A stretch of 48,828 nucleotides of DNA, from the IMG/VR virus record IMGVR_UViG_3300045988_154803. One strand, 5' to 3'. The notes under the pieces are model-generated. The model worked only from the letters and a program-made list of their open reading frames with translations. It ran no database searches and was not told where the DNA came from. Below are positions 16,624 to 21,931 of this stretch, piece after piece. A program made the position numbers and the translations under genes. Positions within the stretch are counted from its first letter, which is position 1. The number at the start of each line of letters is the position of its first letter. The DNA comes from a virus. Lineage: Duplodnaviria > Heunggongvirae > Uroviricota > Caudoviricetes.

Positions 16624-16923
16624 TCAGATGTTAAACGCTATTCGTTTTCCTGTGGGAAGCTCAACATCCAGGCTTAATTTGCCTCCCATAGCTTCAACGT
16701 AACGCTTTAATGTCGCCAGCTTTAAATCATTTCCGCGCTGCTCCAGCTTTGTTACTGCTGGCTGGCTTATACCCATCGCCTCAGCAACCTGTTTTTGTGA
16801 TAACTGGAGTTCTTCACGCATCATCTGCAAGCCGACCTCAAGAATCATCTCATCTGCCATTTCTTTAATTCGCGCCTGGCTTTCCGGTGAACGGCTGGCA
16901 ATCGCCTCATCTAATGTTCTCAT
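16624..16923 (-). CDS. higA: HigA-like XRE HTH antitoxin
   Basis: QKQVAEAMGISQPAVTKLE HTH; immediately downstream of and overlapping toxin gene. Confidence 0.65.
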   Translation of the reverse strand: MRTLDEAIASRSPESQARIKEMADEMILEVGLQMMREELQLSQKQVAEAMGISQPAVTKLEQRGNDLKLATLKRYVEAMGGKLSLDVELPTGKRIAFNI

Positions 16924-17276
16924 TACTTGCTCTCCAGTGTGTTCAGATGTGCTGCAAACTCATCCTCAGCTATACGCACCAGTTTTTCATAAAACCGCTT
17001 ATCGTTACTTTTGTCTCCTGCACAAAGAACGATGGCCCGGCGAATCGGATCGAACGCATAAAAGGCTCTTATCGGACGGCCAGAAAACTGAACGCGAAGC
17101 TCTTTCATATTTTTGTACCGAGAACCTTTTACGGTATCGGCATATGGCCTGGGTAACTCAGGTCCGTAAACCTGTAGCTTTTTCAAATCAGCCAAAACCT
17201 TTTCCTGAAGAGCGTCTTCTTGCTCATTTAGCCAGTCGTCAAATCGCTGGCTAAAAAGTACCGTCCACATGCTCAA
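16923..17276 (-). CDS. higB: HigB-like RelE/ParE-superfamily toxin (Gp49-like)
   Basis: 117 aa; toxin-first arrangement with HTH antitoxin; sequence pattern recalled from Gp49/HigB family. Confidence 0.65.
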   Translation of the reverse strand: MSMWTVLFSQRFDDWLNEQEDALQEKVLADLKKLQVYGPELPRPYADTVKGSRYKNMKELRVQFSGRPIRAFYAFDPIRRAIVLCAGDKSNDKRFYEKLVRIAEDEFAAHLNTLESK

Positions 17277-17325
17277 TCCTATAACCTGTAGTTTATATCA
17301 CTAACTATATAACCTGTGAGTTATA
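17277..17325. promoter_or_regulatory. Direct repeats TATAACCTGT upstream of higB (candidate autoregulatory operator)
   Basis: cctataacctgtag ... tatataacctgtgag. Confidence 0.45.
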
Positions 17326-17514
17326 ATTTCAAGAAAAACGGGGCTATTTAACATAATGGACGTTATCGGCACCACCGGATCACCGTTCATTGTCGGATCT
17401 AAAAAATCCGCGCAAAAGATCATGTTTTCCTGGGCGTTTTCCACTGTTTTTTATGTTGCTTATTTGTTAATGAAATCTCGTTTTCAGTTTCGCCTCATTT
17501 TCGACACGAAAGCC

Positions 17515-17805
17515 CTATTTTTGTGACTTTACTCCTGGCATATGGACTTCCCAGCGACGAATCCCCATAGCTGCGCAAAAATCAGCCACATAATTCAATC
17601 CCGCCCATTCGCGGATACCACCACGGGCTTTTTCAATGAAAACGGCAATCCCTTTTTTATTGAGAGCAAAAAGCCGCCAGCTTTTTGTCACTTCGTCCTG
17701 GGTAGCCACAACACAAGTGAAAGCTCCCATGCGATACAGGTCCAAGAACTCTTTGCGTGTTTTGCGTACAAGTTCCATAACAAACCTCATATTTGCATGT
17801 TTCAA
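17515..17805 (-). CDS. Hypothetical protein
   Basis: 96-aa ORF adjacent to origin region. Confidence 0.35.
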   Translation of the reverse strand: MKHANMRFVMELVRKTRKEFLDLYRMGAFTCVVATQDEVTKSWRLFALNKKGIAVFIEKARGGIREWAGLNYVADFCAAMGIRRWEVHMPGVKSQK

Positions 17806-18101
17806 ACATCTGTTTTGTTATCAATGAAGATTAACCCTAACCCAGCGAAGTAACACAGCAGCGCCCAGGCTGCATACGGAATGCTGGATCTGGATGTGGA
17901 CTCCTTTAACATCTGCCAGTTGCGAACATTGCGACTATCTTTTAAGCCTAGTTTTTTGGCCAACTGCGAGCCGCTCATTCCGGTCAGGCCAATGACTGCC
18001 CGAACTTCTCCACATGTAGGAGATTCCCATTCATCCGCTTTTTTTAAACAAGCCGGATTCAACATTTTTAAAACAGTATCTTTATCCATAACCATCTCCA
18101 T
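17802..18101 (-). CDS. Hypothetical protein with HTH-like segment and hydrophobic C-terminus
   Basis: VIGLTGMSGSQLAKKLGL; C-terminal AAWALLCYFAGLGLIFI. Confidence 0.35.
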   Translation of the reverse strand: MEMVMDKDTVLKMLNPACLKKADEWESPTCGEVRAVIGLTGMSGSQLAKKLGLKDSRNVRNWQMLKESTSRSSIPYAAWALLCYFAGLGLIFIDNKTDV

Positions 18102-18732
18102 TTATTATATCTACGATGGTAGGAAATCTTTTCCTATGTGGCAATAGAAATTTACTACATTGCGTATAAGACAAGTTTTCTATGTCTAATAGGAAATGAT
18201 GTTTCTTACGTTTTGTCGCGTTCTGATGGCTACTGTGTGCGTATTTATCGACGTTTATTGATAAGGCCCGCCCCTTCCTCCTGCAAAGCTCGGCCGTAGG
18301 CCTTATTTCGGCCTTATATAAATTGATTTTGTATAGTTCGAAACGCGCCGTTTCGAAAAGGATGATCAGGCTGCTCCATGCCTCCGGCAAGTGCCGGAGG
18401 AGGTATATTTGAGCGTAGCGACTCGAACCGGCGCGAGCTTTAGCTCGCTGCAAGGGCGAACATATTCACAGGCAAAGCCTGCGTAAGTTAAATAAAGAAA
18501 GTCTTAATAAAAGAAAGTGATTTTGCATTTATTTGTTTAGTGCATCTATTATAAAAAACCATTTGCATATACATATCAAAACTGTGGATAACTTTATTAG
18601 CCGATGCCTGTAAAGACGATATTTTTGCTGTGTTCAGGTTTAGAGAAAATTAATTTAGACTATTTTTTGAACAGATATTTTATTGCGACGTAGATAATCC
18701 TCCGGTAAAACCGGATTCATCATTCAGGTGGG
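18102..18732. other. Candidate plasmid replication origin (AT-rich, DnaA box, GC hairpins) downstream of repA
   Basis: DnaA box TGTGGATAA at 18583-18591; hairpins cgaaacg-cgc-cgtttcg, ctccggca-agt-gccggag, gcgagc-ttta-gctcgc; no credible ORF. Confidence 0.5.
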
Positions 18733-19713
18733 TTAATGTTGGAGTGATTTCCAGGTCTTTCTTAGCCTGTTATAACGCTGCTCAACGAGGGATCGTAAAT
18801 ATGCAAGGTCAGCACCTGGATACATGCCATCAGCAAATTCCTGGCTAACCTCTCTAGTGATTTGATGACGAAGTTCGGCCTCTCCCTTTTCCTGAACAAG
18901 ACGCGCAGCTCTCTCCGCTGCTTTCTGTTTTGCCTTTATCTCTCTGGCCGTCTTCCTCTGACGCCATACATTCTCCATCTGCTCCTGAATAACAATACGC
19001 TTATAATCAGCCTCCGTTATCGCTTTTTTAAGCCGTTCGCTATTCTTCGCATTGAAGTAATTAAGTTTCTGGCTAACCGCACGTCTCCATGCTTGTTCAG
19101 TAATACCAACGATTTCCAGCAGTTGATCACGAATCTCTATTTTCGCTGGCCAATACTGTTTATTCACCCGATCCCAGCGACGTTCATAATCAATAAAACC
19201 TAACGCTTTCAGTTGCGACAACGCCCTTGTACAGCGCGTTATAGACTTGTTCCCAGCTTCGGATACGGTAGACAGGCCGCAAAAATCAGCCAACGCCTCA
19301 GCACTGGCCAGAACCCGCTTAGAAATGATGTTTACATGGTGCAAAATCGCAGCAATCACAGCATTAATCGCCCGACGACGATGCTCGTTTATCCGGCGTT
19401 TCCGCTCTGACGGTTGATTAACGTAGAACGCAACCTCACACGTAAGATCACGACCATTAATGCGCTGTAAAGCATCAGATAACACCAGCGGCAGCTTGTG
19501 CGTATGGTGCTTTGGAGGCTGGAACTCCGGCGACAAATTACAAACGTAAGCTGAACGTAGAGACGGCATTGGTCTATCCATATGTTCGCTCTTGCGTCCA
19601 CGGAAAACCAACGTATAATGGGAGTTGTCGAGGCGCCCATGGATTGTTTTTGTTGGTTTTCCGTGGATGTCGCAAGAAGCCCGCAGATTTATCTGCGGGC
19701 TTTTTGTTTCCAT
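18733..19713 (-). CDS. repA: IncFII-type RepA replication initiator (RepA1-like); true start possibly internal
   Basis: RRRAINAVI...GLSTVSEAGNKSITRCTRALSQLKALGFIDY aligns by eye to R1/R100 RepA1 block RRRAIDALL...GLATESAAGKLSITRATRALTFLSELGLITY (recalled). Confidence 0.8.
   Translation of the reverse strand: METKSPQINLRASCDIHGKPTKTIHGRLDNSHYTLVFRGRKSEHMDRPMPSLRSAYVCNLSPEFQPPKHHTHKLPLVLSDALQRINGRDLTCEVAFYVNQPSERKRRINEHRRRAINAVIAAILHHVNIISKRVLASAEALADFCGLSTVSEAGNKSITRCTRALSQLKALGFIDYERRWDRVNKQYWPAKIEIRDQLLEIVGITEQAWRRAVSQKLNYFNAKNSERLKKAITEADYKRIVIQEQMENVWRQRKTAREIKAKQKAAERAARLVQEKGEAELRHQITREVSQEFADGMYPGADLAYLRSLVEQRYNRLRKTWKSLQH
19679..19710 (+). terminator. Plus-strand intrinsic terminator antisense to repA 5' region (candidate CopA-like RNA 3' end)
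   Basis: gcccgcag-atttat-ctgcgggc followed by TTTTTGTTT. Confidence 0.4.
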
Positions 19714-19894
19714 ATCTGGTCATTTTCCAACCAGACACCCACAATCATAACCACGTTACGTGGTTTTCAGAGAACTCTACCACAACACTTTCGGTCATGC
19801 ACGAAGTCTCTCACTGATCGAACGATAATCCACCAGTAAAAGGATCTAAATTGGATCTCGTTTTGCGAGCATCATACTACTGGCCTAACTCCAG

Positions 19895-20449
19895 TCAATG
19901 ATTCCCAGCCGGAAACCTGCGGTAAAGCGTGGATAAGGTAACATCGAAGATAATCGCTATCCGCTTACGTGAAACACCATTCGCAATAAGCCTTCCGATC
20001 TGTTCCCATTGCTCTGGTGCCAATTTTGAGCGGCGTCCTCCTATCCTGCCGTTAGCCCTTGCCACCGCCAATCCTGCACGCGTTCTTTCAATCATATTTT
20101 CCCGCTCCATCTCTGCGACTGCACTCAGCATCGTGTAGGCAAAGCGGCCAATTGAAGTGCTAATTTTTATCCCTTCCGTAATCGAAATAAACTCAATGTT
20201 GTTTGATAAAAAATGGTTAAGTAAATCAACAAGATGAATCAGAGAACGCCCCATTCGGTCCAGCTTCCAGACAATAACCGTATCGCCCGGCCGTAACACC
20301 TTAAGTAGCTTATCAAGTCCTGGTCGTTTTGATTTAGCACCGGATATTTTATCTTCAAAAATCTGGTCACATCCTGAACTCCTGAGCGCCTCCAGTTGTA
20401 ATTCCAAATTCTGGTCAAAAGTTGACACCCTCGCATAACCATATTGCAT
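19895..20449 (-). CDS. Gin/Hin/Cin/Pin-family serine DNA invertase
   Basis: 184 aa; YARVSTFDQ catalytic Ser motif, WKLDRMGRS, C-terminal HTH; alignable along full length to Mu Gin as recalled. Confidence 0.95.
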   Translation of the reverse strand: MQYGYARVSTFDQNLELQLEALRSSGCDQIFEDKISGAKSKRPGLDKLLKVLRPGDTVIVWKLDRMGRSLIHLVDLLNHFLSNNIEFISITEGIKISTSIGRFAYTMLSAVAEMERENMIERTRAGLAVARANGRIGGRRSKLAPEQWEQIGRLIANGVSRKRIAIIFDVTLSTLYRRFPAGNH

Positions 20450-20513
20450 ACTTTCTAAACCGCGATTGTTGCTAAAAGCGGAAAAAAATATCGTTCAGAC
20501 GACACAGAGGCAA

Positions 20514-20539
20514 TTCGCAAAAACCTCGGTTTACAGGAA
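20514..20539. repeat. Left inversion crossover site (gix/hix-like, inverted orientation)
   Basis: Reverse complement reads TTCCTGTAAACCGAGGTTTTTGCGAA; inverted repeat of right site. Confidence 0.8.
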
Positions 20540-20563
20540 ACGGTAAACCGAGCCGGGAACGCC

Positions 20564-21400
20564 GTGCAAAAAAATGGCGATACCTTGTCCGGTGGACTTA
20601 CTTTTGAAAACGACTCAATCCTTGCCTGGATTCGAAATACTGACTGGGCAAAGATTGGATTTAAAAATGATGCCGACAGCGATACTGATTCATATATGTG
20701 GTTTGAAACAGGTGACAACGGCAATGAATATTTCAAATGGAGAAGCCGCCAGAGTACCACAACAAAAGACCTGATGACGCTGAAATGGGATGCACTAAAT
20801 ATTCTTGTTAATGCCGTCATTAATGGCTGTCTTGGAGTTGGTACGACGAATGCACTAGGTGGTAGCTCTATTGTCCTTGGTGATAATGATACCGGATTTA
20901 AACAGAATGGAGACGGTATTCTTGATGTTTATGCTAACAGTCAGCGTGTATTCCGTTTTCAGAATGGAGTGGCTATTGCTTTTAAAAATATTCAGGTAGG
21001 GGATAGTAAAAAGTTCTCGCTATCCAGCTCTAACACATCCACGAAGAATATTACCTTTAATTTATGGGGTGCTTCCAACCGTCCAGTGGTTGCAGAGTTA
21101 GGCGATGAGTCCGGATGGCATTTCTATAGCCAGCGAAATACAGATAACTCGGTAATATTTGCTGTTAATGGTCAGATGCAACCCAGCAACTGGGGGAATT
21201 TTGATTCCCGCTATGTGAAAGATGTTCGCCTGGGTACGCGAGTTGTTCAATTGATGGCGCGAGGTGGTCGTTATGAAAAAGCCGGACACACGATTACCGG
21301 ATTAAGAATCATTGGTGAAGTAGATGGCGATGATGAAGCCATCTTCAGGCCGATACAAAAGTACATCAATGGCACATGGTATAACGTTGCGCAGGTGTAA
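20564..21400 (+). CDS. Alternative tail-fibre C-terminal variable domain (promoterless; fused to constant N-terminus after inversion)
   Basis: Frame open from crossover site; C-terminus ...RPIQKYINGTWYNVAQV parallels expressed fibre C-terminus ...RPIQYCINGTWYNAGSI. Confidence 0.75.
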   Translation: MQKNGDTLSGGLTFENDSILAWIRNTDWAKIGFKNDADSDTDSYMWFETGDNGNEYFKWRSRQSTTTKDLMTLKWDALNILVNAVINGCLGVGTTNALGGSSIVLGDNDTGFKQNGDGILDVYANSQRVFRFQNGVAIAFKNIQVGDSKKFSLSSSNTSTKNITFNLWGASNRPVVAELGDESGWHFYSQRNTDNSVIFAVNGQMQPSNWGNFDSRYVKDVRLGTRVVQLMARGGRYEKAGHTITGLRIIGEVDGDDEAIFRPIQKYINGTWYNVAQV

Positions 21401-21403
21401 GTT

Positions 21404-21931
21404 ATGCAGCATTTAAAGAACATTAAGTCAGGTAATCCAAAAACAAAAGAACAATATCAGCTAACAAAGAATTTTGATGTTATCTGGTTATGGTCCGAAG
21501 ACGGTAAAAACTGGTATGAGGAAGTAAATAACTTTCAGGACGACACCATAAAGATTGTATACGACGAAAATAATATTATTGCCGCCATCACCAAAGATGC
21601 CTCCACGCTTAACCCTGAAGGTTTTAGCGTTGTCGAGGTTCCTGATATTACCGCCAACCGACGTGCTGATGACTCAGGTAAATGGATGTTTAAGGATGGT
21701 GCTGTGATTAAGCGGATTTATACGGCTGACGAACAGCAACAACAGGCCGAATCACAAAAGGCCGCGTTGATTTCCGAAGCTGAATCAGTCATCCAGCCGC
21801 TGGAACGCGCTGTCAGGCTGAATATGGCAACAGACGAGGAACGCACACGACTGGAAGCATGGGAACGCTACAGCGTTCTGGTCAGCCGTGTGGATACGGC
21901 AAATCCTGAATGGCCACAAAAGCCTGAATAA
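21404..21931 (+). CDS. Tail fibre assembly chaperone (alternative orientation)
   Basis: Paralog of 21960-22493 product ([22 protein letters not shown] vs [22 protein letters not shown]). Confidence 0.75.

Follow-up and report, generated by a model that had tools for sequence, protein, structure and literature searches.

Positions 18,102-19,713 of the 48,828-nucleotide viral record IMGVR_UViG_3300045988_154803 (Caudoviricetes; the whole record is referred to here as the window) hold the replication module, of plasmid type, of an E. coli phage-plasmid of ~48 kb that belongs to the 'p-p47' type. The interpretation in which we place moderate confidence combines an initiator of the IncFII/L-M RepA type, a messenger leader that is refolded by an antisense RNA, and an origin downstream of repA. 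In this model RepA, an initiator of 278 amino acids (aa), would be translated from ATG 19569 (or 19581) of an mRNA starting near 19864, whose leader of ~290 nt would contain four stem-loops, A to D. An antisense RNA of ~85 nt would be made from the opposite strand, from a promoter inside hairpin D to the hairpin and U-run at 19679-19709. When this RNA is absent the two arms of hairpin D would pair together and the repA start region would be accessible. When present it would pair with the apical loop and 5′ arm of D, setting free the 3′ arm (19594-19613), which would fold onto the start region as hairpin E, switch off RepA translation and thereby limit copy number. RepA and the host DnaA would act at an origin lying ~140 nt downstream of repA (~18404-18593). 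Copy number is thus most likely limited by a small antisense RNA, through a likely refolding switch rather than R1-style Tap coupling. The gene is already labelled RepA in RefSeq, and a preprint of August 2026 that named the lineage the 'p-p47 family' (bioRxiv 10.64898/2026.08.19.745698; all statements about this source refer to the part of it available to us) reports antisense-type copy control in that family. New here are the corrected start, the defined antisense gene with its specificity tract, the refolding model and the origin assignment; the available text of the preprint contains no refolding switch, corrected start or origin.

The initiator is, by its profile matches, a member of the RepA_IncFII_LM superfamily. 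The open reading frame (ORF) at 18733-19713 on the minus strand, 326 aa as annotated, matched Pfam IncFII_repA (PF02387) with E=4.2e-44 and 151.4 bits (cut-off 22.9), residues 53-319 aligning with profile positions 2-272 of 275. In its 278-aa form the protein also matched NCBIfam RepA_IncFII_LM (NF040977), over residues 10-271, with 233.1 bits (cut-off 70). In contrast, its score with the incFII_RepA equivalog TIGR03474 was only 78.4 bits, the cut-off being 446.9 and the score of a genuine IncFII RepA run for comparison 578.6. Identity to real IncFII RepA proteins is ~30-40% over the core. The kinship to R1/R100 RepA that had been proposed from the sequence by eye (the original prediction) therefore holds at the level of the superfamily and fails at that of the narrow equivalog, and by these scores the module is not an IncFII replicon in the strict sense. 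The coding region is best divided as follows.

18733-19569, minus strand: repA coding sequence, 278 aa, with the start common to homologues and matches to Pfam and NF040977.
19570-19713, minus strand: annotated 5′ extension of repA, most likely non-coding, comprising leader RNA and the antisense RNA gene.

Alignments place the true start of repA at the conserved internal ATG 19569. RepA homologues have 277 aa whether their identity is 80-85% or ~60%, ATG 19713 is missing in Salmonella, Klebsiella and metagenomic relatives, and in four of 13 distinct E. coli-type alleles indels put 19713 out of frame with repA. Together with family profiles that begin at residue 53 of the long form, these data lead us to reject 19713, bearing out the earlier suspicion that the annotated start is wrong and an internal Met is used. 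A second in-frame ATG at 19581 (282 aa), four codons upstream of 19569, is a possible lineage-specific alternative. It is in frame in this lineage only, its counterpart being an out-of-frame upstream ATG in other lineages and the start of a leader peptide in more distant relatives. Public databases already carry 326-, 282- and 278-aa versions of exactly this protein, and in many records repA is annotated 48 codons too long. The real start codon is needed to interpret the copy-up mutants described below and to type these replicons, which are now untyped by MOB typing.

Within the former 5′ extension of repA lies a predicted antisense gene with a variable specificity tract, both of which can now be located.

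19592-19619, plus strand: antisense promoter, −35 TTGCGT (19592-19597), 16-nt spacer and perfect −10 TATAAT (19614-19619), as read from the sequence.
19626-19709, plus strand: predicted antisense RNA of ~85 nt with probable ends as given; a 5′ tail precedes stem-loop I (~19632-19671), and terminator stem-loop II (19672-19707) carries a U-run.
19640-19650: hypervariable tract, mRNA AAAAACAAUCC, in the apical part of antisense stem-loop I; (CAA)4 in the commonest allele.

The hairpin and U-run previously noted antisense to the repA 5′ region are present, G19679-A19687 pairing with U19692-C19700 around a 4-nt loop that is followed by UUUUUGUUU at 19701-19709 on the plus strand. The stem of 9 bp is GC-rich, and the antisense −10 sits 60 nt upstream on the same strand. 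The segment 19590-19715 (plus strand) folds with −68 kcal/mol, z = −10.35 against dinucleotide shuffles. A simple terminator scan missed this hairpin (19679-19709), and a consensus promoter scan missed the promoter, the −35 of which agrees at three of six positions only. Both promoter hexamers and the terminator are invariant in all nine clade members (RepA 62-85% identical to that of the window), the pairing of the terminator stem is kept through an A-U to G-C double change in four to five of nine relatives, and promoter and terminator are present too in a second clade (~60% RepA identity), which retains TATAAT with a TTGCAT −35. Inspection of the window and of Salmonella sequences for another antisense promoter, upstream of 19594, yielded no conserved candidate.

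The predicted fold of the antisense RNA, a 5′ tail followed by stem-loops I and II, is identical in all members. Pairing holds in 99.6% of cells of the consensus structure, with compensatory changes at four pairs, compared with none or one in slid controls. Compensatory changes occur in the stem of stem-loop I, the loop of which differs in sequence and size between members. The G-U pairs of this stem would be A-C mismatches on the repA strand; as they exist on the plus strand only, stem-loop I is a plus-strand structure. We infer the existence of the RNA, and its ends from promoter and terminator, and regard it as an analogue rather than a homologue of CopA. An Rfam search at E≤10 over 17000-21000 detected neither CopA (RF00042) nor PK-repBA, returning only terminator-like chance matches such as Thr_leader and CsrC; a genuine IncFII locus (L028), used as positive control for CopA, scored 96.1 bits. 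Of the CopA-type RNA anticipated in the repA 5′ region, then, the predicted countertranscript terminator is in place, while the features that would make it CopA proper are lacking. There is no Rfam match, no copB (the upstream gene is a serine recombinase, with no small ORF between it and the repA promoter) and no conserved tap, the start and frame of the window's 49-codon ORF being unconserved even among near-identical alleles. With a predicted countertranscript unit, promoter and intrinsic terminator included, inside the rep leader, the window shows the general arrangement of antisense-controlled replicons.

The hypervariable tract has the mRNA context CCAAC[AAAAACAAUCC]AUGG. A core-pattern scan added 31 further loci, giving 34 distinct alleles. 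Among E. coli-type replicons the tract differs, through substitutions and 1-3-nt indels, far more than the rest of the control region, where these alleles show scattered single-base differences only. Where diversity clusters in the loop of an antisense RNA, a specificity determinant is classically indicated, and the tract would set recognition specificity and rate.

On the opposite strand the repA promoter and leader contain these elements.

19871-19898, minus strand: repA promoter TTGACT-16-TATGAT, agreeing at 10 of 12 consensus positions; TTGACT ... TAT(C/G)AT clade-wide.
19843-19857: a pair of GATC sites, spaced by 11 bp, a short way downstream of the repA −10.
19749-19765, minus strand: leader stem-loop A (AACCACG / CGUGGUU), from RNAalifold; stem invariant, loop variable.
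19712-19738, minus strand: leader stem-loop B, with four pairs showing compensatory changes and U-G pairs on the mRNA strand only.
19589-19678, minus strand: leader stem-loop D, a long hairpin with 5′ arm 19654-19678 and 3′ arm 19589-19613, from single-sequence fold and RNAalifold.
19567-19613, minus strand: putative alternative hairpin E, D 3′ arm with the repA initiation region, covering AUG 19581 and AUG 19569, from constrained folds.

RNAalifold applied to the mRNA strand recovered stem-loops A to D, with eight compensatory pairs (0-2 in slid controls) and 95.9% of cells pairing. Hairpin D has a two-part stem of ~23 pairs, three of them with compensatory changes, and an apical loop of ~40 nt; the antisense promoter and start are located within its 3′ arm and apical loop. 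Changes in the 5′ arm of D are accompanied by changes in its 3′ arm and in the 5′ side of antisense stem-loop I (in L003, G to A, C to U and C to U); selection thus appears to act on the mRNA hairpin and the antisense hairpin alike. A comparable long hairpin, built on an unrelated stem sequence, surrounds the same core, GCCUCGACAACUCC..AUUAUA, in the second clade (L019, L027 and others). A conserved leader peptide, sought in all frames of the clade alignment, was not found, and conservation in the control region shows no codon periodicity. The GATC pair falls within the first ~20 nt of the predicted transcript and recurs in eight of nine clade members, L024 keeping one site only; such paired sites could permit Dam/SeqA sequestration of the repA promoter after replication.

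As leader-peptide control was unsupported, antisense binding was modelled by making the bases that the RNA would cover unavailable for folding, in eight of the nine clade members (L024 excluded). With these bases blocked, hairpin E formed in all eight. In seven of them, blocking lowered the unpaired probability of the first AUG from 0.15-0.77 to 0.00-0.26 and that around the repA AUG from 0.41-0.62 to 0.09-0.39. When the segment is folded by itself, hairpin E comes out as the structure of lowest energy in every one of the nine members (z from −2.2 to −4.3), and the duplex of arm and start region beats shuffled start regions in each of the six divergent start-region types, only 0.2-3.9% of shuffles being as good. 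The arm in the second clade shows complementarity to the leader-peptide Shine-Dalgarno sequence, suggesting an analogous masking of a ribosome-binding site. These data are consistent with a switch in which the antisense RNA would decide whether the 3′ arm pairs within D or with the start of repA.

Mutants described in the preprint may bear on the same segment. Their copy number is raised 5- to 400-fold, the changes being six G/C-to-T/A single-nucleotide polymorphisms and a 3-bp deletion, 58-86 nt upstream of repA, and repA transcription is unchanged (bioRxiv 10.64898/2026.08.19.745698). Counted from the 278-aa start, this interval in the commonest allele is CAACAACAACAATCCATGGGCGCCTCGAC, that is, the (CAA)4 tract and the GC-rich apical loop; it begins exactly at (CAA)4, a natural site for 3-bp slippage deletions, and extends into the antisense 5′ region. 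Counted from 19581 it is still within the antisense gene. Both countings fit the refolding model, the mapping assuming that the 278-aa or 282-aa start was the reference used in the preprint.

Downstream of repA the proposed origin and its surroundings are laid out as follows.

18696-18717, minus strand: hairpin AAUCCGG-N5-CCGGAGGAUU, directly after the repA stop; clade-conserved, with a variable loop.
18404-18593, minus strand: proposed origin core, a conserved block with a GC minimum of 22.5% and homology to other replicons.
18583-18591: DnaA box TGTGGATAA, the only perfect box of the window.
18521-18568, minus strand: three ATGCA repeats of the origin core.
18488-18518, minus strand: two AT-rich 15-mers within the 22.5% GC trough.
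18467-18483 and 18433-18448, minus strand: hairpins H1 and H2 of the origin core, with compensatory changes and G-U pairs on the repA-sense strand only.
18292-18400, minus strand: GC-clamped hairpins H3 (18381-18400), H4 (18337-18357) and H5 (18292-18302), invariant in eight relatives.

The hairpin that follows the repA stop has the same AAUCCGG-N5-CCGGAGGAUU motif after repA in a true IncFII plasmid. Beyond it, ~100 nt of A-rich unconserved spacer lead to a conserved block that begins at the DnaA box. A single perfect box is statistically unremarkable (0.45 expected by chance; 36 of 100 shuffles have at least one). It is, however, found at the same place in all eight aligned members, in one of them as TTATTCAC. 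The TTATCCACA lies 142 nt after the repA stop on the repA-sense strand, against 177 nt in the same orientation in the IncFII locus L028. This parallels oriR of R1, which spans 188 bp and starts with a consensus DnaA box next to which RepA is bound (PMC5883639). A sensitive search found the H2 motif, CCGCCCTTGCAGCGA..TCGCGCCGGTTCG, in ~160 other plasmids. Two of these, a rep_cluster_1367 plasmid and the Yersinia pYV IncFII plasmid, were retrieved, and both have it 270-360 nt after repA, with compensatory changes in the hairpin between those replicons, and ATGCAAATGG repeats are common to the window and the rep_cluster_1367 plasmid. On this homology and position we propose the origin core at ~18404-18593. 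The box, the hairpins (five, H1-H5, within or adjoining the proposed origin) and a probable origin downstream of repA were all as expected from the first inspection. The ~630-bp AT-rich region said to be free of ORFs was so in part, 18102-18732 having no annotated gene in RefSeq relatives and low GC being confined to 18480-18600 (22.5%), with 50-61% in the hairpin part. H3-H5 are evidently conserved, with no covariation, their sequences being invariant; they stand past the origin core, at a place that would be fitting for a single-strand priming signal, which is a guess. Two candidate features of this region were rejected: a 13-nt long-range inverted repeat (18344-18356 with 18423-18435) is not retained in relatives, and a 123-aa ORF at 18082-18453 on the minus strand has no Pfam match, is unannotated in relatives and has indels along its length in them.

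Several observations weigh against the combination of antisense-induced refolding and downstream origin set out above. In L023 the blocked-base folding shows no difference between the free and the bound state. The sequence that most resembles a Shine-Dalgarno element, AAGAG (19589-19593), is tied up in the base of hairpin D in the ON state, with an unpaired probability of ~0.05, and the ribosome-binding site for ATG 19569 is therefore weak and undefined. As the 3′ arm is nearly invariant, the evidence for hairpin E consists of one-sided variation and shuffle tests rather than true covariation. The ends of the antisense RNA derive from promoter and terminator prediction. Counted from ATG 19713, the copy-up mutations fall at 19771-19799, outside the predicted antisense RNA. 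Finally, the global alignment to R100-type oriR is not significant (z = 1.6).

A more specific proposal, which we advance only tentatively, is that the cassette is an antisense-triggered translational switch of three segments (5′ arm, 3′ arm and start region), hitherto undescribed in the enterobacterial IncFII/L-M superfamily, that uses neither leader peptide nor pseudoknot, and that a slippage-prone (CAA)n contingency locus lies in its recognition loop. If this is true, changes of one repeat in (CAA)n would reset copy number and incompatibility. It would also account for the range of natural alleles at 19640-19650 and for the copy-up mutants, reversible and of high frequency, that underlie piperacillin-tazobactam heteroresistance. 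According to the preprint, phage-plasmids of the p-p47 family are common in clinical E. coli, some carry bla-TEM-1, and copy number determines heteroresistance (bioRxiv 10.64898/2026.08.19.745698).

Classical IncFII (R1) control, in which an antisense RNA blocks a Tap-like leader peptide to which repA translation is coupled, is unlikely, although it has several points in its favour. A 49-codon ORF runs from ATG 19723 to TAG 19574-19576 through hairpins C and D, its stop 4 nt before ATG 19569 and overlapping ATG 19581; L019 and L027 have a 33-codon leader with an ATGA overlap with repA; and the preprint, as available, reads the system as CopA/CopT. Among the commonest E. coli-type alleles, however, the leader begins with CTG or GTG, and indels of 1 or 2 nt disrupt its frame in other alleles. 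A long leader ORF is lacking in four of eight clade members, the stop in the others ranging from −7 to +121 relative to the repA ATG. The lack of codon periodicity in conservation and of an Rfam CopA match, both noted above, also argues against a peptide of this type.

Control of the I-complex / IncL-M type is improbable; there, a leader loop and a sequence by the repA ribosome-binding site can form an activating pseudoknot, which the antisense RNA blocks. The RepA of the window fits the IncFII_LM model, and two related loci carry Rfam PK-repBA above the gathering score.

L016, 1869-1989: PK-repBA hit; RepA 63% identical to that of the window.
L005, 2351-2469: PK-repBA hit; RepA 36% identical to that of the window.

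UUGGCG is the loop motif of I-complex / IncL-M type control, and the apical loop of hairpin D holds UGGGCGCC, which is reminiscent of it. Nonetheless, PK-repBA is unmatched in the window and in the clade members scanned (L003, L012 and L022), and neither a conserved CGCC partner near the repA start nor a conserved short leader ORF was found. A candidate pseudoknot partner for the GGGCGCC loop, UUGUCG..GGAGUU (~19522-19538), was discarded, being in the wrong order and missing from relatives.

More doubtful still is the view that the hairpin at 19679-19709 is a mere terminator or structural element, insulating repA for instance, with no regulatory antisense RNA and with copy number set otherwise. 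The hairpin is palindromic and so folds in the repA mRNA too, and the antisense RNA is a prediction from sequence. On the repA strand, however, the hairpin is followed by CUUCUUGCG and no U-run, whereas on the plus strand a perfect invariant −10 stands 60 nt upstream. In addition, stem-loop I covaries with its G-U pairs on the plus strand only, the hypervariable tract lies exactly in its loop, and the copy-up mutants of the p-p47 family map upstream of repA. That the 326-aa protein started at 19713 is the real product, with the hairpin merely within its coding sequence, is hardly credible: the window has an open frame here and many records carry a PGAP annotation of 326 aa, but the ATG is missing in relatives and frameshifted in four of 13 near-identical alleles, homologues have 277 aa and the profiles begin inside the long form.

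The 2-kb region round the locus matched 63 plasmid records at 95-99% identity. These plasmids are ~47-52 kb, non-mobilizable and nearly all from Escherichia, and include the 48.5-kb plasmid of E. coli ATCC 25922; the same region also matches three Yersinia phages, vB_YpM_39, 41 and 44. CP032086.1, a 98.8% match to the window, is an accession that the preprint also cites. One flank in the matching records holds a Hin/Cin-type invertase and tail-fibre cassettes, the other two small ORFs and then a RelE/ParE toxin-antitoxin pair. From the plasmid and Yersinia phage matches and such neighbours, the module is read as the plasmid replicon of a phage-plasmid. In the window the neighbour upstream of repA is the following gene.

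19895-20449, minus strand: serine recombinase (Resolvase + HTH_7; Hin/Cin-type).

This invertase adjoins tail-fibre C-terminal and assembly cassettes in opposite orientations (20564-21931), which looks like an invertible host-range switch, and as its stop codon abuts the repA promoter, read-through into repA is possible. On the other side, ~1.5 kb past the origin, a RelE/ParE-family toxin (117 aa) and a helix-turn-helix (HTH) antitoxin (99 aa) at 16624-17276 are likely a plasmid-addiction module. Between them and the origin, at 18116-18144 and 18189-18200, a palindrome, TAGGAAA-N3-TTTCCTA, overlaps a promoter, TTGCCA-17-TACCAT, directly upstream of a 99-aa ORF at 17802-18101 on the minus strand. 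The palindrome is kept in all relatives, has another half-site 60 bp off and looks like an autoregulated operator; the ORF has a weak match to 'mobile mystery protein A' and no other. The one copy-up mutant of the preprint without a mutation in the repA region was hit in an unnamed plasmid 'potential transcriptional regulator', as far as the available text describes it.

Swapping of control cassettes between closely related RepA proteins is evident in the relatives. Relatives with 60-63% identical RepA have three types: PK-repBA (as in L016), a long hairpin with leader peptide and a long hairpin without peptide, the long-hairpin cassette occurring in other relatives at ~60% RepA identity. The occurrence of such different cassettes beside related RepA proteins shows that control regions and initiators have recombined. 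In four loci at ~60% RepA identity (L017, L018, L025 and L026 (112-588)) an ORF of 158-162 aa replaces the short leader peptide. It has a weak IncFII_repA match in three of the four and an ATGA overlap with repA in L017, L018 and L025, as if a RepA-like DNA-binding fragment had been inserted into a coupled leader. Of two scans of species-representative genomes, that with a protein pattern found no relative and that with a DNA pattern matched one unrelated metagenome-assembled genome only.

In comparison with known systems, the replicon of the window resembles IncFII R1/R100 (copB-copA-tap-repA-CIS-oriR) in the superfamily of its initiator, in its predicted two-stem-loop countertranscript, which in R1/R100 is likewise ~85-90 nt long and located in the repA leader, in the hairpin after the repA stop, and in an origin downstream of repA whose consensus DnaA box lies at the edge nearest to repA and points the same way. 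It differs in the distance of its RepA from the IncFII equivalog, in the lack of CopA homology and of a conserved tap, and in that its antisense promoter sits inside the long leader hairpin. The p-p47 phage-plasmids of the preprint (47-49 kb, mostly from E. coli) are the same element family. There RepA and a 'predicted CopA/CopT' are already named and upstream copy-up mutations were isolated, the R1 CopA/CopT mechanism having been assigned by analogy and, in the text available, without coordinates, whereas here neither CopA homology nor Tap was found. The I-complex / IncL-M repBA replicons (Rfam PK-repBA, RF01089) belong to the same RepA_IncFII_LM superfamily, and the nearest outgroup replicons, L016 and L005, use their control; the window, in contrast, lacks a PK-repBA match and a short leader peptide whose stop overlaps, and a pseudoknot partner could not be identified in it.

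The closest parallels to the proposed mechanism are found outside this superfamily. In pT181 and pIP501 a pre-emptor arm, a shared arm and a target are arranged so that the antisense RNA decides the pairing (PMC5703833), a three-segment logic like that of the window model. Those systems terminate transcription, whereas the hairpin that would be induced in the window has no U-run and covers start codons, and p-p47 copy-up mutants have unchanged repA transcript levels. RNAI of pSK41, which has ~83 nt, two stem-loops and a 5′ tail, pairs with the leader far upstream of the start site and induces a stem-loop that sequesters the ribosome-binding site (PMC5703833). The RNA predicted in the window, of ~85 nt, has the same architecture and would bind at least 45 nt upstream of the first AUG. 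The staphylococcal RepA_N initiator of pSK41 is of a family unrelated to the IncFII_repA of the window, its host is Gram-positive and the two share no sequence similarity. The control cassette of the window, a distinct variant, probably works like pSK41 RNAI, by analogy of mechanism rather than by membership of its family.

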